In this document: positions 1,554-16,024 of the stretch, in pieces
Layout: the number at the start of each line of letters is the position of its first letter
How positions within the stretch are numbered: the stretch's first letter is position 1
Assembly (NCBI GenBank): GCA_038212275.1
Contig: JBBQUR010000001.1
Span: 192,001-256,000, forward strand
Origin: Planctomycetota bacterium
Lineage (GTDB): Bacteria > Planctomycetota > B15-G4
Reading direction: 5' to 3'
DNA length: 64,000 nt
Notes under the pieces: model-generated
Told to the model about the DNA's origin: nothing
The model's database searches: none
Seen by the model: the letters and a program-made list of their open reading frames with translations, nothing else
Program-made: the position numbers and the translations under genes

Positions 1554-3365
1554 TCAGGTCGTCGGGCTGCCCAGGAAGCGCAGGCAGGTCTCCAGAAGCC
1601 GCGCGCGGTCGACGGGCTTGGACACGTAGTCGTCGCAGCCGAAAGACAGGCACAGATCGCGGTCCGACACCATGCTGTTGGCGGTGAGCGCGACGATCGG
1701 CGCGGTGTAGCCGGCCGTGCGGAGCATGCGCGTCGCTTCGTTGCCGTCGAGCACGGGCATCTGCATGTCCATGAGAATCAGGTCGAAAGGACGCCCCTCG
1801 GACAGTGCCGCAAGTGCGAGGTCATGCGCCAGCCGGCCGTTCTCCGCAAGCACCACGTCGGTGCCGAGTCTGCGCAGCATGTGACTGATGAGGACCTGGT
1901 TGTCGCGCGTGTCCTCGGCCAGGAGCACGCGGCCGCGCAGGCGCACGGACGGTACGGGCTCCGCAGGCGGCTCGCGCGGACTCGTGGCGGCAGGCGCCGG
2001 GGAGCCGCATGCTTCTGACGGCGCGTCGAAGCTCGGCCGGATGAGCGGGACGTCGTCGAGCGCGCCGACATCCACGCACAGCGTGAAGCAGCTGCCGCGC
2101 CCCGGTTCGCTCTGCAGCAGGATGTCGCCGCCGAGCAGGCGTGCCAGTCGCCGCGAGATGGCCAGCCCGAGTCCCGTGCCTCCGAAGCGGCGTGTCGTCG
2201 AGGAGTCGGCCTGCGTGAATGGCTGGAACAGGGACGAGGCTTCCTCGCTCGTCAGGCCGATCCCGGTGTCCGTGACCAGGAAGTGCAGCTGCGGAGGACG
2301 GCCCGGCGACGCGAGGTTCCTGTCCGGCAGGCTGACACTCAGCGTCACGCCGCCCGTCGCGGTGAACTTGATCGCGTTGCCCGCGAGGTTGATCAGGATC
2401 TGGCGCAGGCGCGTCGGGTCGGTGCGGATCGTGGCGGGAATCGGCGTGCCCGCCGACAGGCTGAACGACAGGCCCTTTTCACCGGCACGCGCCTTCATGA
2501 GCGCCTCGACGTCGTGCATGAGCGCTGCGGGAGAGCACTCGGTGCACTCGACCGTCATCTTGCCGGCCTCGATCTTGGACAGGTCCAGGATGTCGTTGAT
2601 CACGGCAAGCAGGTGGTCGCCGTTGCGGCGGATGACCTGCGCGTGCATGCCGACGTCGCTGCGATGGATGTCGGGATCGGACAGCAGGTCCGCGAAACCG
2701 AGGATGGCGGTGAGCGGCGTGCGGATCTCGTGGCTCATGTTCGCCAGGAATTCCGACTTCGTCCGCGTCGCGGCCTGCGCCTCGAGCGTTGCGGCCTGCA
2801 GCAGGCGCGTGCGCTCCTCGACCATGGATTCCAGGTCGTCGGTGCGCATGCGCGCCTTGCCGAGCAGGTTGCGCTTCTCGGTGAGGGCAAGCGCGAGCTG
2901 GCACACCTCCACGGTGTCGAAGGGCTTCTTCAGGATGAGCAGCTGGTCATTCAGGCCGACGCGAGCGCGGATCTGCTCCAGCGAGTGGTCGCTGTAGGCG
3001 CTGCAGATGACCACCTGCAGGTCCGGGTCGATCTGCCAGAGGCGCGCGATGGTCTCGAGACCATCGATGCCGGGGGGCATGCGCATGTCCACGAACGCGA
3101 GCTGGTACGGCGTGCCGCACGCCATCGCCGTGCGCACGAGAACCAGTCCGGCCTCGCCCTGGCTGGCCGCATCCAGTTCGTACTCGTCGGAGCAGACAGT
3201 CGACACCGTTGCGGGCTCGTCGCCGAAGAGGCCGCTGCGCGCGGCGGCGAGTTCCTGGCGGACCGGGCTGGTCTCGGGCCGCAGGATCTTCCGGAAGTCG
3301 GCCAGGATCGACTCGTTGTCGTCGATCACGAGGATTCGTCTGCGGGTCGGGATGGGCGTGCTCAT
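1554..3365 (-). CDS. Hybrid histidine kinase/response regulator (REC-HisKA-HATPase-REC)
   Basis: ILVIDDN...FVDMRMPPGIDG receiver; FLANMSHEIRTPL H-box; NLAGNAIKFT, DTGIG, GGTGLGL boxes; C-terminal VLLAED...LILMDMQMP receiver. Confidence 0.95.
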   Translation of the reverse strand: MSTPIPTRRRILVIDDNESILADFRKILRPETSPVRQELAAARSGLFGDEPATVSTVCSDEYELDAASQGEAGLVLVRTAMACGTPYQLAFVDMRMPPGIDGLETIARLWQIDPDLQVVICSAYSDHSLEQIRARVGLNDQLLILKKPFDTVEVCQLALALTEKRNLLGKARMRTDDLESMVEERTRLLQAATLEAQAATRTKSEFLANMSHEIRTPLTAILGFADLLSDPDIHRSDVGMHAQVIRRNGDHLLAVINDILDLSKIEAGKMTVECTECSPAALMHDVEALMKARAGEKGLSFSLSAGTPIPATIRTDPTRLRQILINLAGNAIKFTATGGVTLSVSLPDRNLASPGRPPQLHFLVTDTGIGLTSEEASSLFQPFTQADSSTTRRFGGTGLGLAISRRLARLLGGDILLQSEPGRGSCFTLCVDVGALDDVPLIRPSFDAPSEACGSPAPAATSPREPPAEPVPSVRLRGRVLLAEDTRDNQVLISHMLRRLGTDVVLAENGRLAHDLALAALSEGRPFDLILMDMQMPVLDGNEATRMLRTAGYTAPIVALTANSMVSDRDLCLSFGCDDYVSKPVDRARLLETCLRFLGSPTT

Positions 3366-3368
3366 CGT

Positions 3369-5267
3369 TCAGGCCACCTTGCGCGCGAGTTGCAGGGGCA
3401 GGTCGAGACGGAAGCTGGCGCCGGTGCCGGGGCCGTCGCTGTGCGCGGAGAGCTCGCCGCCGAGTTCGCGCGCCGCATTGGCCGCGGAATGCAGGCCGAA
3501 GCCGTGGCCGTCCTGGCGCGTGGTGAACCCCTGGCGGAACAGTCCCTTCAGGTGCTCGCTGGAGATGCCCGGACCGTTGTCGGTCAACGTGATCCGCACG
3601 CGGTCTCCCGGCATGCGTGCCACGGTGATGGTCATGCGCGGGTCGGGAGTGTCCGCATCGCGCAGGGCCTGGTGCGCGTTCTTCACCAGGTTGACCAGGA
3701 TCTCGAGCAGCTTGTGCCGCCGCAGCAGCAGCCTGGGCAGCGGCTCGAAGCTGCGCACGATGGCCACCGGCGCCGCGCCCGGCAGCACGGGCGAGAGCCG
3801 CAGGGCAGCCTCGATCTGCTGGACCAGATCCAGCGGCTCGGGCTCGGCCTTCGCGCCCACGTTTTCCTGCTGTTCGTCCACGAGGGCGCGGATGTGCTCC
3901 ACGCCGCTCTCGAGCGAATGCAGTTCGGTGAGCATGCGCTCGCGCTCGTCCACGAGGCTTCTGGAGAAGGCTGCGAGAAAGGCCGGCAGGTGCCGGCCGC
4001 GGCTGTCCTCGGTGATGAAGCGTGCGAGGTCCTGCTCGTGCGTTGCGAGCGTCGTGGCGAGACGCGGGGCATCGGAGAGGCTTCCGGCGTTCACCTGTGC
4101 ATGCAGCGCGCCGGTGGACACGTTGACGCTGTTGAGCACGTTGCCCACGTTGTGCAGCACGGCGACGGCGACCTCCGCCTTGCCGTCGCGGTGCGCGCGT
4201 TCCAGCAGCTCCTCGTGGCTCCGCGCGAGTCGCTCGACCATGTCGTCGAAGGCTCGCGAGAGCAGGCCGAACTCGTCGCGGCGCTTGCTGTTCATGCGCT
4301 GCGCGAGGTCGCCGTTGCTGCCGACGGCGAAGACGTGACTGGAAAGCTCTCCCAGGGGCTTGAGGATGGCCTGACGCAGCAGGAAGAACAGGACCGCGAA
4401 CAGAAGCAGCGCCGCGACGAGCATCGACCCGAGCACGAAGGTGACGGCCTGGCGGCCCCGGGCCATCACGGCGCGAGGCAGGTCGGCGCGCACCAGCAGC
4501 GAGGGCCTTCCATCCACGGCCGGCAGCAACGTGAAGGCCAGCATCAGGTCGTCGTCCTGCGGCTGCAGGATGTCGTGCTCGCCCGAGAGCAGCGCCCCCA
4601 GCGCCTGCTGTTCCACGGGCTTCAGCGCCGTCGTCGCGAGCGTGATCGGGTCGATCGCCACCCTGGTCTGCGCGCACAGCTGCTGCACGCGTTCCGGCGT
4701 GAGCAGAACACCCATGATCAGCCAGCCGCGCATCGCTTCCTGCTTGAGGCTGTCCACGATGGGGCGGCTGGACACGAGCATGGTCCCGAGCTCGGTCGAG
4801 ACCAGTCCCTTGACACCCACCTCCGGGTCGGTGCTTGCGAGCAGCGGATGGTTCGTCGGCCAGGCCGTCGAGCCGAAGGCGCTCAGTTGCTGCGCCTCGT
4901 GATCATGGTCCGGGTGGCGGAAGCTGCAGAAGGGCACCTGGCCGTCCAGCGACTGGATGCGCACCACGTCGAAGTTGCCGTTCTCGTAGGCGGAGACCTG
5001 CAGGTTCGCGCGCACGTAATCGTCGTCGTGGTCGGCGACGAAGTGAAACGTGTCATCCCAGGACGCCCAGTCGTGGCAGAAGGAATCGAGCGTGTCGATG
5101 TCCTTCTCGAGCGCTTCGATGGCGCGCGCGAGATTCCGGTGCGACTGCTCGGCTTCCAGCTCCTGGAAACTGGGCAGCAGGATCATGCGCTGGATGCCGT
5201 ACACGCACGCGCCGAACAGCACGACCACGAAGAGCAGGCTGAGCAGAAGGTGCGTACGGATGGACAT
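3369..5267 (-). CDS. Membrane sensor histidine kinase (CHASE4-like periplasmic domain, HAMP, HATPase)
   Basis: Start MSIRTHLLLSLLF; two TM segments; DWASWDDTFHF (CHASE4-type); HAMP (RRDEFGLLSRAFDDM); LHNVGNVLN H-box; DNGPGI and GHGFGLH boxes; 3 bp from the downstream hybrid kinase. Confidence 0.9.
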   Translation of the reverse strand: MSIRTHLLLSLLFVVVLFGACVYGIQRMILLPSFQELEAEQSHRNLARAIEALEKDIDTLDSFCHDWASWDDTFHFVADHDDDYVRANLQVSAYENGNFDVVRIQSLDGQVPFCSFRHPDHDHEAQQLSAFGSTAWPTNHPLLASTDPEVGVKGLVSTELGTMLVSSRPIVDSLKQEAMRGWLIMGVLLTPERVQQLCAQTRVAIDPITLATTALKPVEQQALGALLSGEHDILQPQDDDLMLAFTLLPAVDGRPSLLVRADLPRAVMARGRQAVTFVLGSMLVAALLLFAVLFFLLRQAILKPLGELSSHVFAVGSNGDLAQRMNSKRRDEFGLLSRAFDDMVERLARSHEELLERAHRDGKAEVAVAVLHNVGNVLNSVNVSTGALHAQVNAGSLSDAPRLATTLATHEQDLARFITEDSRGRHLPAFLAAFSRSLVDERERMLTELHSLESGVEHIRALVDEQQENVGAKAEPEPLDLVQQIEAALRLSPVLPGAAPVAIVRSFEPLPRLLLRRHKLLEILVNLVKNAHQALRDADTPDPRMTITVARMPGDRVRITLTDNGPGISSEHLKGLFRQGFTTRQDGHGFGLHSAANAARELGGELSAHSDGPGTGASFRLDLPLQLARKVA

Positions 5268-5419
5268 GCCTGCAGCCCGAGGGAAAAGACTGTCCGTCCC
5301 TTCGACCGATTGTCGCGGCAAGCTTGACCGGTGCTGCGCGTAGGCATTGCGCCGCTCCCGCCGGCGTGCCCAGGGTGCGTGTTGGGCCCGATGCGCGCGG
5401 TGCACGATCCACCAGTGAC

Positions 5420-5973
5420 CTAGCAGTCGGCGCAGCCCTGGGCTCCCTGTTCGTCGGACGAACGGAGCGAGGCCAGCTCCGTCGGAGGTTCGACTCCCAG
5501 TACGCCGCGTTCGAGCGGCACCCACGCTGCAAGCACGTGGGACAGCGACGCGAGGTAGTTGCCGGCGAGCGCGGCTTCCGAGCCATCGGCCTTGCAGTAC
5601 ACGGCGGATGCGAAGGCGGGCACGGTGGCATCGCGGAGCCGGGCATCCCATGGCGCAGCGTGCCCAGCAGATCGTCGTCGCTGGGGTTGGCATTGTCGGT
5701 GGAGACGATGCGGAAGGTGCCGCTCACGAAGTTGCGCGGCTTGGGACTGAGCAGGTAGGCGGCCGGGCCGTCGCCGCGGCCGGCCTCGCCGTGGCACGTG
5801 GCGCAGTGGCGCGCGTAGAGCGTCGCACCGCTCGCCAGCACGCTGTCGTCCTAGCTGACGGACTGGCCCCGCGCCGGAGCCAGCAGCGTGGTCGTCAGGA
5901 TGATGGTCAGTCGCATGCACCCGCGCATGCTCGGCGCATGCATCCGGAACCATGACCTGCGCCATGTCCGCAT
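5420..5973 (-). pseudogene. Disrupted c-type cytochrome gene
   Basis: Signal-peptide-like segment, in-frame TAG at 5851-5853, then DDSVLASGATLYARHCATCHGEAGRGDGPAAYLLSPKPRNF...GMPGSAMPP, then a frame switch near 5621 into VPAFASAVY...ALAGNYLASL. Confidence 0.75.
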
Positions 5974-6267: not shown

Positions 6268-6864
6268 GTGAAGAGCGCGGTGTTCGTGTCCGGCCTGTGC
6301 GGCGTCGTCGCGGGTCTGCTGTTCGGGATGCTCGTGTGGGGTGGGGCGGGCGAGCCGGGCGCGCTGCCGTCCGCCGGCGTCAAGGCGGACGCCGAACTGC
6401 TCGCCACGCTGCGCGACCTGCGCGCGGCCGTCGACCGGCTGGCCGCGCGCGACGCGCTGCCGACCGGGCCCGCATCGGCCACCGCATCCGGCGCCGCCGC
6501 GCCCGCGCCGGTGCAGCCGCTGACCGCCGCGCCCTCGGCCGACGACTACCGCGTCGTGCTCGACCAGGCCGTCGCCGCGCTGCGCGAGGCGGCCAACGCG
6601 GGCAGCACCGGCTTCGCGGATCAGCCGGTGAGCCCCGATGCGGGCGACCGGTTGAAGCGGGCGTTCGCTTCCGACAAGGCGGTCTATCTCGAAATCTTCG
6701 GGTGTTCGCCGCGCGGCGTTTTCGCGAAGCTCGGCCGACCCTCATGGGTGGTACCCAACGATGGGCAAGTCGTCTGGCACTACACCGATGACGCCACGCG
6801 ACAAGACTTCGAGGTGAGGTTCATGGATGGGTATGTCTCGTCCTACTGGCTCAGGCAGCAGTGA
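6268..6864 (+). CDS. Hypothetical membrane-anchored/secreted protein with C-terminal BamE/SmpA-like small domain
   Basis: N-terminal hydrophobic helix, short coiled coil, Ala/Pro linker, then GCSPRGVFAKLGRPSWV...WHY...EVRFMDGYV pattern. Confidence 0.7.
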   Translation: MKSAVFVSGLCGVVAGLLFGMLVWGGAGEPGALPSAGVKADAELLATLRDLRAAVDRLAARDALPTGPASATASGAAAPAPVQPLTAAPSADDYRVVLDQAVAALREAANAGSTGFADQPVSPDAGDRLKRAFASDKAVYLEIFGCSPRGVFAKLGRPSWVVPNDGQVVWHYTDDATRQDFEVRFMDGYVSSYWLRQQ

Positions 6865-6984: not shown

Positions 6985-7815
6985 TCACAGCGTGACGCCG
7001 AACAGTCCCTTGAGCGCGAGGCCGGCAACGATGGAAAGCACGAAGAAGGCGGCGAGGATGCCGCCCTCGCCACCGGGGAACCAGCCGAGATCCCTCTCGG
7101 GGTACTTCCAGCGGATCGTTTCCACGGGTGAGTCGCTCGGCAGGCCCTCTTCGCCCGGATAGAGGAAGCCTTCCCAGCTCTTGGTGCGCATGACCGGCAC
7201 GCGGCGGTTCTCGCCGCCCACGGCGATGCTCTTGGTCACCGCGCTGTCGCCGACGTGCACGGTGACGACGAGGTCGCCCGGCGCCTCGGTCCGCAGGCGC
7301 CACGCGATCTCGCCCCGGGCGGTGCGCACGGGTGGCGCGTCCTGCACCAGCCCCGGCGGAAGCTCCAGCGTCACGGCGGTGATCGGCACCGACAGATGCG
7401 CCGGATCGAGCTGGACCTCCAGGATTTCCACCGTGCCGACCGGAACCGGTGCGAAGGCGTATGTGGCCTCGAGCTGGAAGAGGATGGTCATCATCGGCAC
7501 GAACATGACCACCATCGGCAGCAGGTTGTGGCCGATGTACAGCGCGTTCTTCCACAGGATCTTCAGCGTTGCGGTGAAGACTCCGAGGATGTCCTCGTTG
7601 TAGAGGCGGATCTCGAGCAGGTGCACCTTGATGTCGTTCTTCGCCGCTGCGATGCCCTTCTGGTTGCTCGCGTGCTTGTAGACGATCAGCGCGACGATGC
7701 CGCCGAGAACGGACCAGAAGATGATGTCGGCCCACGGCGACCACGCGCGCTGCACGCCGAACGGGGCGAGCAGCACGCCGAAGATGGCCGAGGTGATGGC
7801 GTTGAACGTGTTCAT
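6985..7815 (-). CDS. Integral membrane protein, DUF106/EMC3/TMCO1-like (Oxa1 superfamily candidate)
   Basis: TM1 ending ALIVYK..SNQ, helical soluble segment, TM2 LLPMVVMFVPMMTILF, soluble beta-rich insert, C-terminal TM FFVLSIVAGLALKGLFGV; last gene of the operon. Confidence 0.6.
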   Translation of the reverse strand: MNTFNAITSAIFGVLLAPFGVQRAWSPWADIIFWSVLGGIVALIVYKHASNQKGIAAAKNDIKVHLLEIRLYNEDILGVFTATLKILWKNALYIGHNLLPMVVMFVPMMTILFQLEATYAFAPVPVGTVEILEVQLDPAHLSVPITAVTLELPPGLVQDAPPVRTARGEIAWRLRTEAPGDLVVTVHVGDSAVTKSIAVGGENRRVPVMRTKSWEGFLYPGEEGLPSDSPVETIRWKYPERDLGWFPGGEGGILAAFFVLSIVAGLALKGLFGVTL

Positions 7816-7828
7816 GGCATGCGGCTGC

Positions 7829-8023
7829 TCAGGAGATGTAGCCGAGTCCGCGCAGCTTGTTCTTGATGTCCTCGTCGCTCTCGGCGTCCTCGAACTGCTG
7901 CAGTTCCTTCTCGAGGATGTGCGTGATGAACTCCTCGACGGTGGCGTAACCGGCCGTGTCGGAGACCTTCTTCAGGCGCGCGATGAGGTCCTTGTCGAGC
8001 TTGACTTTGCCGCCACCGAACAT
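7829..8023 (-). CDS. Small ribbon-helix-helix (CopG-like) protein with C-terminal LRGLGYI tail
   Basis: 64 aa; KVKLDKDLIARLKKVSDTAGYATVEEFITHILEKEL RHH pattern; RBS GGGAG upstream. Confidence 0.8.
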   Translation of the reverse strand: MFGGGKVKLDKDLIARLKKVSDTAGYATVEEFITHILEKELQQFEDAESDEDIKNKLRGLGYIS

Positions 8024-8105: not shown

Positions 8106-10283
8106 TCAGCGATCGAGGATGGAGTGGCCCACCATGCCCTCGCCCGCGGGCAGCCCGAAGTGCTGCAGGAGCGTGACGGTGAGGTCGGGGAGCGCGTGGC
8201 CCGCGCGGGGCAGCTTCCGATTCACGAGCAGGATACCGGGGACGACCTCGGGAGCCATGAGGTGGCTGCCGGACCACAGGTCGTCGTTGTCCGAGAGCAC
8301 GTCCGTGCCGACGTGGCCCAGCGTCGAGGCGTCGGAGCAGTCATAGCCGGCGTTGTAGCCGACGATGACGTCCGGGGCCTCGGCGCGACGCGGTGCCGAA
8401 TAGATGTCGCGGCTGCGGTCCACGCGCAGGACGACCTGGCCGCCGTCCTTGTCGTCGCGCCATGCGAGCAGGTCGGCCGAGAGCTTCGCCATGAGCGCGT
8501 CGGCATCGGCGGGATCCACGCTGCCGCGCGCTTCGCGTCCCTTGAGGTTCAGATACAGGCCGTTGAAGCCGAGGCCGTAGACCGTCGTGCGCGTCCAGTC
8601 GATGTCGCTCGCGTCGATGTCGGGCACGCCGGAGACCACCACCTTGACCGTGCTCCCGTCGTCGAGCACGCGCTCCTCGACCTTGTCGGGCGAGGGAATG
8701 TCGCCCTCGGTCTTGTCCCCCTTGAGGAACAGGTAGCCATGCTCGCGCAACCAGCTGTTGGTGTGCGCCTGCCGCGTGTAGGGCTGGAAGCCGTGGTCCG
8801 ACATGACGATGAGCAGCGTGCCCTCGGGCAGCGCCGTGCGCACCTTGCCGAGCAGCCTGTCGCAGTTGCGGTAATGATTCTCGATGTCGAGCGAGTGCCG
8901 GGCCGCGCTGTCCTTCTCCCACGCGGGGTGGTGGGGCACGCCGGGCGTCTTCGGGTCGCCGTGGCGCCACTCCATGTGGCACTGCAGGTCGATGTCCGAG
9001 AGATACATGAAGCTGCACTTGCCGGGACCGAAGCGCTCCAGCGCGAGGTCGAGCATGCGCTCGCCGTCGGCGTGCACGAGCCCGACCTGCAGCTCGTAGT
9101 CGTCATCGTCGAAGAGGCCGTCCTTGAGGGCGTTGATCTCCTCGGGGAAGCCCTGCGTCCAGTACGGGCCGAGCGCGGCGGCGAGCGCTTCGGCGGCGCC
9201 GTCCGGCGTGGCGATCGGCTGCGCGGGCGCGGCCGGATCGATGTTCACGGGCGAAGCGTAGAGCTTGAAGCCGGGGCGCACTTCCTTGGCGTAGAAGCGC
9301 ACGATGCCGTGCAGCGACAGCATGCCCATCGGCAGCGCATCGAAACTCACGTTCAACCACTCGCTGAACTCGCCCTCGCGCACGATCGTCTCGGAGCCTC
9401 CGACCCGGATCCACAGCACATCCTCCTCGGGATCGACGTGCACGGTGAGGTCGGTGACGAGGTAGTCGTTCTTGCCCGGCAGCTGGCCCGGCTCGAGGTG
9501 GAAGATGTCCGGCGGACCGCGCAGTTTCGTGTGCACGGTGTCGGGGGTGCCGTCGAGGTCCTCGTCGTCCACGGTGACGAACTCGAGGTCGGCCTTGTGG
9601 TCCTTCAGCTTGGTGAAGGCGTCATCGGTGTACCAGGTGTACTTGCCGTACTCGCCGCGCATGTCCACCGTGCCCATGCCGGAGAGCGTCAGGGCTTCGC
9701 TGGCAGGCACCGGATAGTTGCCGGGAATGCGATAGACCTGCGTGTCCACGCCGATCTCGTGCAGGTAATCCCAGTAGGGCTTGCCGCTGCGGTTGTTGCC
9801 GACGGTCTCGCCGCCGAGCGGCAGCACGTAGCCGAAGAGATGCACCGAGCCGGGCACGTCGACGGACGGCGGCGGCGTCGCCGACGCGATTGGCCGATAC
9901 GTCGCCGGGTCGCGGTGCACGAAGTCGAAGATGCCGTGGCCGCCGGGATCCATGCCCGTCGCGAAGGTGGACCACGCGACCGGGCTCTGCGGCGGATTCA
10001 CCGTGGCGAGCGACTGGAAGGTGCCTTCCGCGGCGAGCCGCGTGAACTCGGGCATCTTGCCTTCGTCCATGAGGCGCTGAAGGATCACCGGGTCCATGCC
10101 GTCGATGCCGAGCACGAAGGCTCCGGGCTTGACGGGCGCATCGGCATCGCTCGCGCCGCGCGCCGCGGGAATCAGAGCCGACAGCAGGCCCAGAGCGGCC
10201 AGCGCGCACGCGGCGGTCGGGAGGCGCGCGCCTGCACGACGGCGCGTCCGCAGTGCTTCGAATCTGGAGCCGCGAGGCCTCAT
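8106..10283 (-). CDS. Type I phosphodiesterase/nucleotide pyrophosphatase-like (AlkP superfamily) protein, exported
   Basis: Start ATG overlaps upstream TGA (ATGA); Arg-rich n-region plus hydrophobic h-region; VLGIDGMDP, PPQSPVAWSTFATG, DLQCH, VMSDHGF, SGSH motifs. Confidence 0.9.
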   Translation of the reverse strand: MRPRGSRFEALRTRRRAGARLPTAACALAALGLLSALIPAARGASDADAPVKPGAFVLGIDGMDPVILQRLMDEGKMPEFTRLAAEGTFQSLATVNPPQSPVAWSTFATGMDPGGHGIFDFVHRDPATYRPIASATPPPSVDVPGSVHLFGYVLPLGGETVGNNRSGKPYWDYLHEIGVDTQVYRIPGNYPVPASEALTLSGMGTVDMRGEYGKYTWYTDDAFTKLKDHKADLEFVTVDDEDLDGTPDTVHTKLRGPPDIFHLEPGQLPGKNDYLVTDLTVHVDPEEDVLWIRVGGSETIVREGEFSEWLNVSFDALPMGMLSLHGIVRFYAKEVRPGFKLYASPVNIDPAAPAQPIATPDGAAEALAAALGPYWTQGFPEEINALKDGLFDDDDYELQVGLVHADGERMLDLALERFGPGKCSFMYLSDIDLQCHMEWRHGDPKTPGVPHHPAWEKDSAARHSLDIENHYRNCDRLLGKVRTALPEGTLLIVMSDHGFQPYTRQAHTNSWLREHGYLFLKGDKTEGDIPSPDKVEERVLDDGSTVKVVVSGVPDIDASDIDWTRTTVYGLGFNGLYLNLKGREARGSVDPADADALMAKLSADLLAWRDDKDGGQVVLRVDRSRDIYSAPRRAEAPDVIVGYNAGYDCSDASTLGHVGTDVLSDNDDLWSGSHLMAPEVVPGILLVNRKLPRAGHALPDLTVTLLQHFGLPAGEGMVGHSILDR

Positions 10284-12598
10284 CGCCGCTCCCGATCGCG
10301 CAGCGGTGCGCGCGCAGGTGTTCCGGATGGCGGCGCAGCGGCGGCATTCGAGGCGTCCCCGGATACGGATGCGGTCGATGCGTGAGCAGGCGGGGAGGTG
10401 CCCTCGGGGAAGATGCGTGCGCCCGGAGCCGAGCCGGACTGCGAGAGCGTGTGCGGGTCGAGCGGGCCGCGCACGGCGGCCGCGTCGCCCTCGGCCGCGA
10501 AGACCGGCTTGCCCTGCATGTACTTCGGCGCCACCTGGCCGAAGAGGGCCATGACCGACGGTGCGAGGTCCAGGATGTTCGGCGTGTCGGTGTTGATGGG
10601 CAGGTTGCTGAAGAAGACGCCGGGCACGATGCGCGGATCCACGCAGTGGTCGCCGCTCCAGCTCTTCGTGTTGTCGGTGAAGACTTCCTTCGGCACCGCG
10701 CCGGTCGCGCAGTCCCAGGAATTCCGGTAGCCGCCGTCGTAGCCGACGATGAGGTCCGGGGCATCGAGGCGGTAGGGGCCGTCGAAGAAATCCGCGGCCG
10801 CGAAGACGTCGAGGATCGCGTGCTTGCCGGTCTGCGGATCGATCAGTTCCTTCAGCCTGGCGATGAGCTCCGCCTTCAGCGCGTCGTACTCCGCGCCCTC
10901 GGTCACGATGCCGCTGGCCTCGCGGCCCTTGCGATTGATGAACATGCCGGTGAGACCGAGGCTGAAGGCCTTCGTGCGGCTCCAGTCCACGCTTTCGAAC
11001 CAGTCGCCGCTCGTCTCCTTGCCGTCCTTGAGGAACAGGTAGCCGTTTTCCTTGAGCCACGCATTGAGGTTCACGCCGCGGCGGAAATTCGTGAAGCCGT
11101 GATCGGACATCACGACGAAGGCAGTGTCGGGGTTCTCGACGACGTCCTTCCAGATGCGGCCGAGCAGGTCGTCCATGCGCTTGTAGACGTCGGCGATGGT
11201 GTTCTTGTGCTTCTCGACATCCTTGCCGTGGTTGGCCGGGTGGGTCGGGTCGAGGTAGCGGTAGAACATGTGCTGCACGCGGTCGGTCGTGTCGAAGACC
11301 GTCGTGACGAGGCCCTTCTTCGTCTTGCTCAGCGCGTCGAGGAACATCCTCTCGCGCTCCTCGGCGATGATCAGGCACTGCTCGTAGAAGGCCTGCTCGT
11401 CGATGACCCGCTCGTTGAGCGCCCAGGTGTCCTCGGCGAGGCCCAGCGTCGCGAACGGCCCGAGCTTCTTGGCGAGGTAGATCGAGTACACGCTCGGGTG
11501 GCTGATCGGCATCGCCGGGTTTTCCGGGTCGATGTGGATCGGCGTCATGTAGACGTTCACGTCCGGCTCGATCGCCATGATGTAGAAGCGCGCGATGCCC
11601 TTCACCTTGATGCCGAGGCCCGCCTTGAAGGTGAGCTGGATCCACGGCGAGTATTCGCGCAGGTTCAGGTGGAAGGGTTCGCAGTCCTCGATCTCGAAGC
11701 GCGCGCCACGCTGATCCGCGTCCACGATGAGCGTGAAGGGCACCGTCATCGACGGGTCGCCCCTCACCATGCTGTTGGTGGGGCCCAGGATGCGCGAGCG
11801 GATCTGTCCCTGCTTGTTGCGGCGCAGCACCGTCTGCTCGCCGCCCGTGAACGCCGCGTGACCCTCATGCTGCGCCGTGCTGAAGAAGCCGAAGGTGCCC
11901 TGGCTGCCGCGCAGGTCCGGCACGCACATGCCCGAGAGCAGCAGGCCGTTGAACTTCACCGGCGGGAAGGTGATGGGCACGCGCTGGATGATCGAGAAGA
12001 TGTGCTTCTCGCCGAGCAGCTTCCAGAAGGCCTGGCTTTTCTGGAGCAGCTTGATGCGCGGCTTTTCCATCGGAATCATGTACTTCCCGATGTTCAGCAC
12101 CTTCTTGGCGTTGCCGATGTCCGTGGACGACAGCATCGGCATGTAGGTGCACGGGTCGCGCGTGAGGAAGTCGTAGATGTCGTGGCGCGACGGGTCCACG
12201 CCCGTCGTGAACGACGACCACGCCACCGGCGACATCGACGGGTAGCTGGTGGCCAGCGGGCGGAAGACGCCCTTGTCCGCGAGCCTCTGGAAGTTGGGCA
12301 GCTTGCCCTCGCGCATGAGGCGCGTGGCGATGCCGGGATCCATGCCGTCGAGCCCGAGCACCACGACGCGCTTCACGCGCGCGTGCTTGAACGGGTTGCC
12401 CACGCTGACCATGCGCCAGACGAGCCGGATCGGCCAGATGAGCATCGTGCCGAAGGCGATGAAGAAGGTCAGGATGAGCGCGAAGGCCGAGCCCGCAAAG
12501 GCGAAGCCGGCACCCGGTCCGATGTACGCGTGTGCCTGCTCCCCGCCGAAGAGCACCCAGACGGCGACGAGCGCGGCGATACGCAGCAGCGGCAGCAT
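10280..12598 (-). CDS. Type I phosphodiesterase/nucleotide pyrophosphatase-like (AlkP superfamily) protein, membrane anchored
   Basis: RBS GAGGA before ATG 12598; signal peptide (AHA) then YIGPGAG and TM helix; VLGLDGMDP, PSMSPVAWSSFTTG, DRVQH, VMSDHGF, SGDH; paralogue of 8106-10283. Confidence 0.9.
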   Translation of the reverse strand: MLPLLRIAALVAVWVLFGGEQAHAYIGPGAGFAFAGSAFALILTFFIAFGTMLIWPIRLVWRMVSVGNPFKHARVKRVVVLGLDGMDPGIATRLMREGKLPNFQRLADKGVFRPLATSYPSMSPVAWSSFTTGVDPSRHDIYDFLTRDPCTYMPMLSSTDIGNAKKVLNIGKYMIPMEKPRIKLLQKSQAFWKLLGEKHIFSIIQRVPITFPPVKFNGLLLSGMCVPDLRGSQGTFGFFSTAQHEGHAAFTGGEQTVLRRNKQGQIRSRILGPTNSMVRGDPSMTVPFTLIVDADQRGARFEIEDCEPFHLNLREYSPWIQLTFKAGLGIKVKGIARFYIMAIEPDVNVYMTPIHIDPENPAMPISHPSVYSIYLAKKLGPFATLGLAEDTWALNERVIDEQAFYEQCLIIAEERERMFLDALSKTKKGLVTTVFDTTDRVQHMFYRYLDPTHPANHGKDVEKHKNTIADVYKRMDDLLGRIWKDVVENPDTAFVVMSDHGFTNFRRGVNLNAWLKENGYLFLKDGKETSGDWFESVDWSRTKAFSLGLTGMFINRKGREASGIVTEGAEYDALKAELIARLKELIDPQTGKHAILDVFAAADFFDGPYRLDAPDLIVGYDGGYRNSWDCATGAVPKEVFTDNTKSWSGDHCVDPRIVPGVFFSNLPINTDTPNILDLAPSVMALFGQVAPKYMQGKPVFAAEGDAAAVRGPLDPHTLSQSGSAPGARIFPEGTSPPAHASTASVSGDASNAAAAPPSGTPARAPLRDRERR

Positions 12599-12650: not shown

Positions 12651-13259
12651 TCAGTCGATGAAATGCAGTGTCCGCAGCTTTTCGCGGATGGCAAGTTCCT
12701 CGGCCTCGGGGATGTCCTCGCCGGGCGCGGCGGGGATCAGACCCTTGAGCTCGAGGTAGCGCACGATCGCGTCGGTCGATTCCTCGATGGACTCCTTGCC
12801 GGAGTCGATCTTGATTTCGGCGTGCTCGGGCGCCTCGTAAGGATCGTCCACGCCGGTGAAACCCTTGATCTCGCCTGCGCGGGCCTTCTTGTAGAGGCCC
12901 TTCACGTCGCGGGCTTCCAGCTCGTCCAGCGTGGCGTGGGTGTAGACCTCCACGAAGCTGCCGTGCAGGGCGCGGATCTCGTCGCGCACCGCCTTGTAGG
13001 GCGAGATGGCCGCGGCGATGCACACGGTGTTGTTGCGCGCCAGGAGGCCCGCCACGAAGCCGATGCGGCGGATGTTCGTGTCACGGTCTTCCTTGGAGAA
13101 ACCGAGGCCCTTGGAGAGGTTCGTGCGCACGACATCGCCGTCGAGCAGTTCCACGTTCATGCCGCGCGCGAGGATGACGCGCTGAACGCGCTTGGCGAGC
13201 GTGGTCTTGCCCGCGCCCGAGAGTCCGGTGAACCAGAGAGTGAAGCCGGTGTTGGCCAT
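12651..13259 (-). CDS. cysC: Adenylyl-sulfate (APS) kinase with C-terminal extension
   Basis: TLWFTGLSGAGKTT P-loop, LLDGDVVR, GFSKEDRDTNIRRIG, ISPY, DVKGLYKKARAGEIKGFTGVDDPYEAP. Confidence 0.97.
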   Translation of the reverse strand: MANTGFTLWFTGLSGAGKTTLAKRVQRVILARGMNVELLDGDVVRTNLSKGLGFSKEDRDTNIRRIGFVAGLLARNNTVCIAAAISPYKAVRDEIRALHGSFVEVYTHATLDELEARDVKGLYKKARAGEIKGFTGVDDPYEAPEHAEIKIDSGKESIEESTDAIVRYLELKGLIPAAPGEDIPEAEELAIREKLRTLHFID

Positions 13260-13352: not shown

Positions 13353-14336
13353 TCAGCGCACCTTGGCCTCGAGGAACGGAACCTCGAAGACCTTCTCGTG
13401 CATGATCGGGCCGTGCCCGAAGTAGCCGTGCTCGCCGAAGAGCTCGCCGTGGTCCGCCGTGACCGTGATGAAGGTGTTCTTCGGCACGATGTCGTACAGC
13501 TTCGGGAAGACCACCCGGTCCAGGTACTTGACCGTGTTGATCTGGCGCTGGCGCAGCTCGTCCAGTTTTTCCTGGTTGAAGAACTGCGGCACCTTGTCGT
13601 CCTTGATCAGCTTGCCGCCGACGACCTGGCTGTCCAGGTGCTTGAAGACGCCGTGGATGCCCGAGATGCGCGGCCAGTCCTTCGGGTCCTCGTCTGGCAG
13701 CGCGAAGGGGTAGTGCGTCTCGCCGACGTTCAGCATGTAGAAGCTGGGGCGCTCGTCGCTGAACTTCAGCGTGTCGAGCATCTTCAGCATGTCGTTGTGC
13801 TTGTCCATCAGCTGGAAGGTGTCGAAGGCGCGGTTCACGCCGGTCTTGTTGTTGAGCACCGGCAGCGAGACGCGCGCGCCCGTGATGTATCCCATCTCGC
13901 TGCGCAGGAACTCCGGCATCCACAGCGACGGCACGAGCTTCCCGAACTCCATGCCCTCGGTGCCGAAGCGCGTGTTGTAGTTGAGGAAGTCGTCCTTGTA
14001 GTACTCGGACGCGAACACGTTCTCGGGGCTGTGATGCGGCAGCAGGCCCATGAGCAGGTTGTAGTGCGACGGGCCTGTCCAGCTCGCGTAGCTCCAGCGC
14101 CGCTCGATCTTTCCACCACTGATCTTCGCGATGTTCTTCGGCTCCGCCGCCATGAACGAGTCGTAGCGGCAGGAGTCGAGCGTGATCACGATGTAGTTGT
14201 TTTTGCCCTTCGGATCCGGGCGCGACGACAGTCCGCCGGGCATCGGGCGCGGGCCGGGTCGGCCCGCGCCGGCCGCGGGGCCCCTTCCCGGTGCGGGAGC
14301 GGGCTTGCCGCCGAAGAGCTTGTCGATCAGTCCCAT
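13353..14336 (-). CDS. Cytoplasmic sulfatase-like metalloenzyme (AlkP superfamily)
   Basis: IVITLDSCRYD, ASWTGPSH, NVGETHYPF, TADHGELFGEHGYFGHG, EVPF motifs; no signal peptide. Confidence 0.85.
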   Translation of the reverse strand: MGLIDKLFGGKPAPAPGRGPAAGAGRPGPRPMPGGLSSRPDPKGKNNYIVITLDSCRYDSFMAAEPKNIAKISGGKIERRWSYASWTGPSHYNLLMGLLPHHSPENVFASEYYKDDFLNYNTRFGTEGMEFGKLVPSLWMPEFLRSEMGYITGARVSLPVLNNKTGVNRAFDTFQLMDKHNDMLKMLDTLKFSDERPSFYMLNVGETHYPFALPDEDPKDWPRISGIHGVFKHLDSQVVGGKLIKDDKVPQFFNQEKLDELRQRQINTVKYLDRVVFPKLYDIVPKNTFITVTADHGELFGEHGYFGHGPIMHEKVFEVPFLEAKVR

Positions 14337-14433: not shown

Positions 14434-15597
14434 TCAGGCCGGTGAGCCGGCCGATGCGGACAGCGCCGCGATCAGGATGTCGGCCACCTCCGGTCGCGTG
14501 AACTCCACGGGCGGACGCGTGCCGCTGCGCAGCATCTCGCGCACCTTCGTGCCGGAGAGCATCACCATGTCCTCGGGCAGCGTCGCCGCCGAGGTCTTGT
14601 TGGTGGCCATCGCGCCGGCCTTGCGGTCCCAGAAGGCGTTCTCGAACATCAGCGGCGTGATGCCGATCTCCTCCGCCGTGAAGCTGCGGATGAAGCTCTG
14701 CGCATCGAAGCTTCCGTAGAAGCTGCCCACGCCCGCGTGATCGCGGCCGACGATGAAGTGCGTGAATCCGTAGTTCTTGCGGATCAGCGCGTGGAAGACC
14801 GCTTCGCGCGGTCCCGCATACCGCATCGCCTGCGGATACACGGCCAGTGCGACGCGGTCCTTCGGGTAGTACTTCGCGAGCAGTGCCTTGTAGCAGTCCA
14901 TGCGCACGCGCGCCGGGACGTCGTCGCTCTTGGTCTCGCCGACGAGCGGGTGGATCACCAGGCCGTCCACGCCCTCGAGCGCGCACTTGGTGAGGTATTC
15001 GTGCGCACGGTGCACCGGGTTGCGCGTCTGGAAGGCCACGATGGTCTTCCAGCCCTTGGCCTTGAAGAGCACGCGCGTCTCGCGCGGCGAGAGGCGGAAC
15101 TCGTTCGCGAAGTCGTACTTCGGCAGGTCGAGCACCCACACCGGACCGGCAAGGTAGTCCGGGCCGATGGAGTCCAGGTACTGCACGCCGGGGTGGCTCT
15201 TGTCGGTGGTGCCGAGGCAACCCCGAGCCTCCTCGTTCTTGTCGAAGCTGTAGCGCTCTTCCAGCGTCATGATGCCGAGCAGGTTGCCGGCTTCGTCCTG
15301 CAGCGCGAGGTCGCTGCCGATGGCGTACTTCGCGTCGCCCTTGGCGGAGAGCGTGACGGGCAGCGGCCACACCACGCCGTTGGCGAGGCGGCACGTCGTC
15401 GCGACGGAGTGCAGGTCGTTGCGTCCCATGAAACCCTCGAGCGGGCTCATGGCGCCGGTGCCGAGCATCTCCAGGTCGCTGGTCTCGCGCGCGTTCAACG
15501 TCACGCGGGGGGCCTTGCGAGCTGCGGCCAGCAGCGCGTCGCGCTGTGCACCGGAGGCGATGCGGTTGATCAGGCGTCCACCATGAGCTGCGATCAT
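14434..15597 (-). CDS. sat: Sulfate adenylyltransferase (ATP sulfurylase)
   Basis: HGGRLINR, SPLEGFM, VAFQTRNPVHRAHEY, MRYAGPREA, HFIVGRDHAGVG, SGTKVR, PVEFTRPEV. Confidence 0.98.
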   Translation of the reverse strand: MIAAHGGRLINRIASGAQRDALLAAARKAPRVTLNARETSDLEMLGTGAMSPLEGFMGRNDLHSVATTCRLANGVVWPLPVTLSAKGDAKYAIGSDLALQDEAGNLLGIMTLEERYSFDKNEEARGCLGTTDKSHPGVQYLDSIGPDYLAGPVWVLDLPKYDFANEFRLSPRETRVLFKAKGWKTIVAFQTRNPVHRAHEYLTKCALEGVDGLVIHPLVGETKSDDVPARVRMDCYKALLAKYYPKDRVALAVYPQAMRYAGPREAVFHALIRKNYGFTHFIVGRDHAGVGSFYGSFDAQSFIRSFTAEEIGITPLMFENAFWDRKAGAMATNKTSAATLPEDMVMLSGTKVREMLRSGTRPPVEFTRPEVADILIAALSASAGSPA

Positions 15598-15609: not shown

Positions 15610-15852
15610 CTACAGGTATCCGAGGTTCTGGAGTTTGCGACGGATCTCGGCGATGTCTTCCTTGGAGAAGGCGTTCGTCGTGCCGTCCGGGGGGTGAGTT
15701 GATGTCTTCTGCAGCGCGCTGTCGCCGACGAGGTCGCGCAGCACGAACACGATGAAGTCCGTCGGGGACGAAAAGCCCGACTCCGCGATCACCTGCTGGA
15801 TCCGCTCGTAGAGCGGCCGCGGGATCTTGACGGTGACCTTGGGTTCGCGCAT
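15610..15852 (-). CDS. Ribbon-helix-helix (CopG-like) regulator with C-terminal LQNLGYL tail
   Basis: MREPKVTVKIPRPLYERIQQVIAESGFSSPTDFIVFVLRDLV; first gene of the sat operon. Confidence 0.85.
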   Translation of the reverse strand: MREPKVTVKIPRPLYERIQQVIAESGFSSPTDFIVFVLRDLVGDSALQKTSTHPPDGTTNAFSKEDIAEIRRKLQNLGYL

Positions 15853-16024
15853 GGACGGTGGGGCCTTCGTGCGGCGTGGGGGCGTGGAGAAAGGCGTGCG
15901 AAGCGGGGTGCCCGGCTGAGCAGGGATCGGCGGGCCGGCGGAGTGTGGAGGAGGCTGGTTCTCGGTCGGGAGTCGCGGCGAGAGCTTGGATCCGGGTTGC
16001 TCAGGGACCCGATCCGGGTCACTT

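Follow-up and report, generated by a model that had tools for sequence, protein, structure and literature searches.

Does a bacterium that has its own YidC also make use of an Oxa1-superfamily protein of the archaeal type and, if so, for what? The superfamily has been defined by a core of three transmembrane (TM) helices with a cytosolic coiled coil, with DUF106 described as archaeal and eukaryotic (PMC5868721), and two further papers assign the three-TM DUF106/EMC3 type to archaea and eukaryotes and the five-TM YidC type to bacteria (PMC8887752, PMC7618853). The question is raised by a gene at positions 6985-7815 (minus strand) of the window, i.e. the whole stretch of 64,000 nucleotides (nt) of a Planctomycetota genome (GCA_038212275.1, contig JBBQUR010000001.1) that was analysed here. 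An earlier reading of the bare letters, referred to below as the original prediction, had taken this target gene for a DUF106/EMC3/Get1-like membrane protein closing its operon, possibly an operon-specific insertase or membrane scaffold serving the enzyme encoded at 10280-12598. From profile searches we conclude that the target family is homologous to DUF106/Ylp1, the window copy itself lying beyond the reach of the Pfam model. The target, a small tailed protein and two NPP-type enzymes, named here NPP_A (the enzyme at 10280-12598) and NPP_B, form a fixed four-gene module.

Homology to the DUF106 family

The translation of 6985-7815 has 276 codons and contains all the strings that had been quoted for it (IIFWSVLGGIVALIVYK, SNQK, LPMVVMFVP and LALKGLFGV). 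Its homologues number 594 proteins at E ≤ 1e-3 among 4530 candidates, and a search without word index of representatives at 50% clustering returned 1781 at E ≤ 1e-3, 1079 at E ≤ 1e-10 and 95 at E ≤ 1e-30; because of these matches the target is regarded as a real, conserved gene. The 120 listed relatives share 58-100% identity and are 270-286 amino acids (aa) long; none of them carries a precomputed Pfam domain, and the sources naming them call them hypothetical. Record titles of the family point to Planctomycetota, Myxococcota or “Deltaproteobacteria”, Aminicenantes, Thermoanaerobaculia and others.

Searched singly against Pfam, NCBIfam and the PDB, the window protein gave nothing useful and, since it has no match of its own to PF01956 (EMC3_TMCO1), its membership of that family rests on the family profile. 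The proposed homology was borne out by such profiles, for which MJ0480 (PDB 5c8j, an archaeal DUF106 “YidC-like protein”) is the sole significant match among 177,635 PDB sequences. A profile of 60 relatives found it at E 3e-8 (residues 6-121), with a weak second stretch aligning TM3 and the next PDB sequence at E 0.99, and a subclade profile (44 sequences around the relative P0149) found it at E 4.1e-11 and retrieved nothing else from the PDB at E ≤ 10. In both cases the alignment extends beyond the TM helices and takes in the soluble hairpin. In the reverse direction, PF01956 is matched by 9 of 60 diverse relatives at E ≤ 0.1 and by 4 of 56 members scanned singly at E ≤ 0.01, and P0149 passes the curated cut-off of this Pfam model (28.6 versus 27.1 bits). 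Among the 120 listed relatives of P0149, nine have a precomputed PF01956 domain and eleven were named “uncharacterized membrane protein (DUF106 family)” by the Joint Genome Institute; automatic annotation already applies the DUF106 label to some family members. In the ESM Atlas, the cluster at rank 2 is bacterial and has PF01956 on 17% of its members, and the cluster at rank 3 is an archaeal PF01956 cluster (score 0.77), which is taken as a lead only. The target has no match to PF02096 (YidC/Oxa1/Alb3) and shows three TM helices, not the five-TM core.

Predicted architecture and structural comparison

Two AlphaFold2 models were built. The model of the whole protein (based on 33 relatives; mean predicted local distance difference test score (pLDDT) 85.5, predicted TM-score 0.71) has helices at residues 2-15, 26-49 (TM1), 52-71, 76-119 (the second helix of the hairpin continuing as TM2) and 249-268 (TM3), as well as a beta domain with strands between residues 129 and 236 at a pLDDT of about 90-96. 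The second model, restricted to residues 1-125 (88 sequences, pLDDT 90.5), shows the same helices, the hairpin reaching a pLDDT of 93-98. Averaged over 60 relatives, the TM1-TM2 loop is net basic (K+R 6.8 versus D+E 3.8) and, following the positive-inside rule, the predicted topology has the N-terminus outside, the hairpin in the cytoplasm, the beta domain in the periplasm and a short cytoplasmic end. With its three long hydrophobic helices and this basic loop, the layout of three TM helices and a cytosolic hairpin stands as a prediction. The “soluble insert” of the original prediction is present too, in a refined form: it appears in the model as an immunoglobulin-like (Ig-like) beta-sandwich of about 125 residues. 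Foldseek returned only Ig-like matches for this insert, all of them weak (E ≥ 4.4e-3), with the S-layer protein SbsC as the best (E 4.4e-3) and filamin repeats among the others, and the beta domain alone retrieved from the ESM Atlas only bacterial clusters with no common Pfam family and with all scores below 0.9.

Conservation was assessed in 60 diverse relatives that are 29-62% identical to the window protein, a position being called conserved when at least 80% of the sequences agree. The hairpin has the densest conservation of any segment, with 8 of 37 positions at this level. Polar residues conserved within TM segments are S35, N90, Y93, Q114, S261 and K269, of which N90 (46/60) and K269 (45/60) are kept in about three quarters of the relatives. 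W253 is conserved in at least 80% of the sequences, the window protein having I at this position, and H252 occurs in most relatives.

The whole model was compared with 48,161 representative chains. Chain 8 of 7tut was found at rank 19 (Z 7.6, root-mean-square deviation (rmsd) 3.9 Å, 137 aligned residues, model 21-276 on chain 1-166) and was the only listed row with an rmsd below 5 Å reaching past the hairpin to TM3, so including all three TM helices; it is outranked by unrelated helical hairpins, whose Z reaches 8.5. The 7tut structure is the ribosome-bound multipass translocon and, to judge from its length, chain 8 is probably TMCO1. For the 1-125 model, Foldseek found nothing at E ≤ 0.001; the same chain came second (probability 0.90, TM-score 0.63, rmsd 3.2 over 114 columns), the next best listed TM-score being 0.42. 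In two VIA searches of this model it had a Z of 7.2 (rmsd 3.2, 105 aligned), tied with many hairpins. The structure searches are thus no more than suggestive.

Three of these results weigh against the homology: the window protein has no match to PF01956 at E ≤ 1 and stays below the Pfam gathering score, the structure matches (Z 7.2-7.6 versus top values of 8.0-8.5) fall within the helical-hairpin background, and chains of EMC3, Get1, YidC or MJ0480 are absent among the rows listed in the structure searches. Across the whole genome the PF01956 model gave no match at E ≤ 0.01, the same model being positive in 3 of 14 control genomes, all archaea. The missing Pfam or PDB match of the window protein alone and the background-level Z-scores would suit a resemblance to DUF106 that is due to chance or to compositional bias between hydrophobic proteins. 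That reading is close to refuted, as the two family profiles single out MJ0480, hairpin included, and the Pfam model finds family members in reverse.

A fixed four-gene module

The target is the last gene of a minus-strand operon in the order ribbon-helix-helix-like (RHH-like) gene, sat, sulfatase-family gene, cysC, NPP_A, NPP_B, 64-aa RHH-like gene and target. That it closes the operon, as originally proposed, holds in this window, where the next open reading frame (ORF), 6268-6864, lies on the opposite strand. A convincing terminator was not found near the target (6 terminator-like sites versus 5.5 expected), the promoter and terminator scan being at chance level. Six DNA sequencing runs contain this stretch in whole or in part, and no RNA run containing it was listed. 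The target ATG follows the stop of the small gene by 13 nt, and the NPP_A stop and the NPP_B ATG overlap as ATGA at 10280-10283, which suggests translational coupling of the two enzymes.

A sample of 80 related loci from public genomes was compared by tblastn with the window proteins, and the neighbours of the target proved to be fixed, in support of the operon specificity that had been assumed for it. The small gene lies directly upstream of the target in 76/76 loci with at least 450 nt upstream, and an NPP-type gene precedes the small gene in all 63 loci with at least 2.6 kb upstream. The gene at that position is closest to NPP_B in 58 of these 63; in the five others, which are distant, the two paralogues both have their better score with NPP_A. 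Of the 57 loci in which the upstream sequence extends to at least 4.9 kb, 54 have another NPP gene next in line, of the NPP_A type. Further upstream the composition varies: of the 44 loci that offer 9 kb or more on this side, 16 have a sulfatase-like gene, 12 have cysC, 12 have the upstream RHH gene and 10 have sat. A survey of the flanks (seven loci chosen for clean-looking ORF calls, 55 ORFs scanned) revealed additional genes beside the cassette, including a PAPS (3'-phosphoadenosine 5'-phosphosulfate)-type sulfotransferase directly downstream of the target (L046:10823-11431), an arylsulfotransferase upstream (L069:1894-3786) and, in two loci, a third, shorter NPP-type gene (L063:4376-5671, L082:10719-12155).

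Distribution, YidC and the YIGPGAG enzyme

The source genome is 91% complete and consists of 40 contigs. It harbors one copy of the target family and, on another contig, a canonical YidC (PF02096 E 3.8e-46, C4:84694-85290, in an open frame of 630 codons), in line with the original view of YidC as the normal insertase of bacteria. Because this YidC is present, we do not regard the target as the general insertase. The distribution of the family was examined in 151 genomes sampled evenly across the phylum, among them related and therefore non-independent genomes; a match was accepted at E ≤ 1e-5 and called strong at E below 1e-60, from a hand count of the listed rows. The family was found in 26 of the 151 genomes, 20 of them strong. 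Its presence goes with taxonomic family, all sampled members being positive in three of these (f1 4/4, f6 3/3, f20 2/2).

NPP_A carries a YIGPG-type anchor motif, which allowed its occurrence to be traced at the DNA level. The YIGPGAG pattern is present in 19 of the 151 genomes and the reversed control pattern in none. The suggested phylogenetic profile supports the link: 17 of the 20 strong-family genomes have the pattern versus 2 of the 131 others. In 13 of the 17, site and target gene share a contig and are about 4-5 kb apart; in three, the site is on another contig. The strong-family genomes in which the pattern was missing (G033, G063 and G088) all belong to one taxonomic family, f34, whose members may use a variant of the motif. 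A diverged family copy (G040, E 1.7e-30) has retained both NPP genes and the small gene beside it, and the four weakest family matches (G016, G046, G076, G101) have no NPP cassette genes nearby.

Bacteria with two YidC paralogues exist, and the target could by analogy be an additional insertase of general use, comparable to YidC2 in Gram-positive bacteria, that adjoins the cassette by chance. In favour of this, it has retained the core features of the superfamily. The strict synteny across distant lineages, the patchy distribution in the phylum and the co-occurrence with the YIGPGAG enzyme make this very unlikely.

The four weakest family matches represent a second bacterial DUF106-like subfamily (L083:4880-5707, L084:2561-3379, L085:7786-8619, L086:5337-6182). 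These proteins have 273-282 aa and the same layout of three TM helices and a beta insert, and all four match PF01956 (E 1.3e-6 to 3.9e-4), one of them above the cut-off with 28.7 bits. In all four loci the gene directly follows a gene for a PPDK_N/PEP-utilizer protein of about 945 aa, which itself follows a PQQ-type beta-propeller gene, and FG-GAP proteins are encoded nearby. There are thus at least two distinct conserved gene neighbourhoods in which bacteria encode DUF106-type proteins.

Partner proteins

N-termini of NPP_A were compared in 53 of 73 NPP_A-type ORFs, namely those whose alignments start early enough. All 53 show a hydrophobic signal-like segment, in most cases A-x-A, and then Y[IV]GPG, about 30 residues of hydrophobic helix, an R/K-rich stretch and the catalytic domain. 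In the window (12430-12598) the signal-like segment ends with AHA, and directly after it come YIGPGAG and a long hydrophobic helix rich in glycine. The enzyme had been described as N-out anchored; as a signal-peptide-like segment precedes the anchor, this would be a hairpin or a cleaved anchor and not a simple N-out helix, which speaks against a role of the target purely for this enzyme. With a cleaved first segment as with a hairpin, the catalytic domain is predicted to be cytoplasmic. Sixty NPP_B orthologues instead have signal peptides, signals with a Cys (lipobox-like) or signal anchors, none of these 60 N-termini contains a YIGPG motif, and NPP_B is predicted to be exported. Read against NPP motifs, the window sequences appear to keep the metal-binding and nucleophile positions in both paralogues (for example GxDGxD, the Ser in P-x-x-S-P-V-A-W, and DHG).

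The small protein is the most conserved member of the cassette: 69 of 69 distinct sequences end in GLGYIS, and 13 columns are invariant in 34 aligned sequences. Similar tails, consisting of an acidic linker and an amphipathic end, are seen in three proteins of the operon, i.e. cysC (...EKLRTLHFID, 12651-12735), the upstream RHH protein (...RRKLQNLGYL, 15610-15660) and the small RHH protein (...KLRGLGYIS, 7829-7870). The cysC-type tail is present in 9 of 13 cysC genes of related loci, and the RHH tails in all orthologues seen.

Possible roles of the target

The reading that we favour, at a probability of about 0.45, is that of a module-specific Oxa1-superfamily subunit acting as insertase or holdase and as scaffold, both its activity and its contacts being inferred. 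The target would insert NPP_A by its short hydrophobic hairpin or anchor and retain this element afterwards, much as YidC handles small hairpin proteins; its periplasmic Ig-like domain would contact NPP_B, and its conserved cytosolic hairpin would dock a cytosolic partner, possibly the GLGYIS-tailed protein. The outcome would be a complex spanning the membrane. In this genome the module is coupled to PAPS synthesis (sat, cysC). YidC-only clients are small hairpins or N-out anchors, and the N-terminus of NPP_A resembles these client types. Cox18 is a precedent for a client-restricted paralogue of the YidC type.

Several observations count against this role. The YidC of the genome is available and could insert NPP_A alone. 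The genes do not always travel together: in one clade (L078, L079 and L080) NPP_A is not adjacent, with NPP_B, the small gene and the target retained; in G004 the YIGPGAG site is on the same contig (C8, L088) at a distance of 19 kb; and two genomes, G003 (100% complete) and G057 (89% complete), have the pattern without the target family. The target is linked more closely with the tailed protein and with NPP_B than with NPP_A, and for the high conservation of the hairpin and the Ig-like domain a permanent subunit is at least as good an explanation as a catalyst. Dedication of the target to the enzyme at 10280-12598 was therefore upheld in part: the co-occurrence in 17 of 20 genomes speaks for it, and the tightest linkage, kept in three loci without an adjacent NPP_A, is to the other two partners.

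The tighter linkage and the strong conservation just described, together with the availability of YidC, favour the main alternative, a pure scaffold, which we consider less likely: an Oxa1-type descendant that performs no insertion and serves to connect NPP_A, or else the tailed protein, on the cytoplasmic side with NPP_B in the periplasm, via its hairpin and its Ig-like domain. It would account for the hairpin being the most conserved segment, for a periplasmic domain that is conserved and well folded in the model, and for the fixed order with the tailed protein and the gene in the NPP_B position even where NPP_A is not adjacent, insertion being left to YidC. It accounts less readily for the polar residues conserved in the TM segments (S35, N90, Y93, Q114 and S261), as expected of a working hydrophilic groove, and for an NPP_A anchor that resembles a typical small-hairpin client.

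The presence of two intact paralogous enzymes, predicted on opposite faces of the membrane, also allows for a conduit or scramblase whose Oxa1-type groove would pass an amphiphilic substrate or product (lipid-linked, with a phosphorylated or sulfated head group) between the cytoplasmic and the periplasmic enzyme. Insertases can scramble lipids, and the link with sulfation genes is a repeated one, with the sulfotransferase directly downstream of the target as a further instance. This reading is wholly inferential and improbable: sulfation genes are absent from most loci, and the target sequence gives no pointer to lipid binding. Likewise improbable is a more far-reaching version, in which an archaeal-type Oxa1 fold was recruited in bacteria as the core of a membrane-spanning enzyme machine and is not an insertase; its hydrophilic groove would pass an amphiphilic, phosphorylated or sulfated intermediate from NPP_A to the periplasmic paralogue, and GLGYIS-type tails would bring the sulfate-activating enzymes to the cytosolic hairpin.

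Comparison with known systems

Whichever role applies, the closest known relative is MJ0480/Ylp1 of Methanocaldococcus jannaschii, which has the same order of elements as the target (N-terminal helix, TM1, cytosolic hairpin, TM2, outer loop, TM3) and a similar core length. The target differs from it in being bacterial, in having an Ig-like domain in the TM2-TM3 loop, in coexisting with YidC and in that its gene belongs to an enzyme cassette and is not a housekeeping one, and PF01956 misses the window copy. In a preprint (bioRxiv 10.1101/2020.12.20.422553), the archaeal YidC set was drawn from PF01956, non-archaeal members being excluded as EMC3/TMCO1, and an EMC6-like (EMC6/Elp1-like) partner was predicted on the distal face of the last helix; no gene for such a partner was found in the target cassette.

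EMC3, TMCO1 and Get1 share the three-TM core and the cytosolic coiled coil (PMC5868721) with the target. EMC3 and Get1 work in multi-subunit assemblies, as the target likewise seems to, but the partners of the eukaryotic proteins are membrane-biogenesis subunits or the Get3 ATPase, and those of the target are enzymes. No sequence-level match to EMC3, TMCO1 or Get1 was obtained with the target profiles, and the structural Z-scores remain within background. YidC (PF02096) belongs to the same superfamily and has five core TM helices versus three in the target. Gram-negative YidC has a periplasmic beta-sandwich (the P1 domain), which is placed in a different loop from that of the target.

The literature search, which did not extend to subscription journals, turned up no paper on either a bacterial family of the DUF106 type or the NPP module. 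A 2025 review describes the question of a three-TM versus a five-TM ancestral core as unsettled (PMC7618853). A large bacterial three-TM family, with the representatives counted above, bears on this question and offers a bacterial setting for studying the three-TM fold. The family also draws attention to a four-gene membrane module with enzymes predicted on both membrane faces and a link to PAPS synthesis that recurs in a minority of the loci.

Features of the locus

Table 1. Segments of the target protein and genes of its operon, with positions in the window. Residue numbers refer to the target protein; conserved, at least 80% of 60 relatives.
Feature	Position	Strand	Basis
Target gene, 276-aa DUF106/Ylp1-like (Oxa1-superfamily) membrane protein	6985..7815 (stop codon included)	-	ORF and translation, 594 homologues, family profiles vs MJ0480
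N-terminal amphipathic helix, residues 2-19, predicted periplasmic face	7759..7812	-	Helix in both models; N5, P18, F19 conserved
TM1, residues 26-49	7669..7740	-	Helix in both models; S35, L43 conserved; aligns to MJ0480 TM1
Basic helical hairpin, residues 50-84, predicted cytoplasmic	7564..7668	-	Model helices 52-71 and 76 onward; S50, Q52, I55, K59, E68, R70, L71, D74 conserved
TM2, residues 85-119	7459..7563	-	Model; Y93, P100, P107, Q114 conserved; aligns to MJ0480 TM2
Ig-like beta-sandwich insert (TM2-TM3), residues 120-246, predicted periplasmic	7078..7458	-	Model strands; weak Ig-like Foldseek matches
TM3, residues 247-270	7006..7077	-	Helix 249-268; S261 conserved; weak alignment to MJ0480 172-197
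Small 64-aa ribbon-helix-helix-like protein, invariant C-terminal tail GLGYIS	7829..8023	-	Directly upstream in 76/76 loci; weak NikR N-terminal domain match, E 1e-3
NPP_B, NPP-type alkaline-phosphatase-superfamily enzyme, N-terminal signal peptide	8106..10283	-	PF01663 E 8e-30
NPP_A, NPP-type enzyme with signal-peptide-like segment, AxA, YIGPGAG helix and basic stretch; catalytic domain predicted cytoplasmic	10280..12598	-	PF01663 E 2e-31
cysC (adenosine 5'-phosphosulfate (APS) kinase), C-terminal amphipathic tail ...EKLRTLHFID	12651..13259	-	PF01583 E 9e-62, residues 5-152 of 202
Sulfatase-family protein, STM4013-like (STM4013/SEN3800)	13353..14336	-	PF00884 E 3e-7; NF038075 E 3.6e-17, far below cut-off
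sat (ATP sulfurylase)	14434..15597	-	PF01747 E 7e-90; PF14306 E 1.5e-45
Upstream RHH-like protein ending ...RRKLQNLGYL	15610..15855	-	Weak RHH_1 match, E 0.11; tail kept in the 12 orthologues found

Downstream of the operon, two long ORFs occupy positions 1554-5693 on the minus strand. To judge from the translations, one resembles a hybrid histidine kinase/response regulator and the other a sensor histidine kinase.

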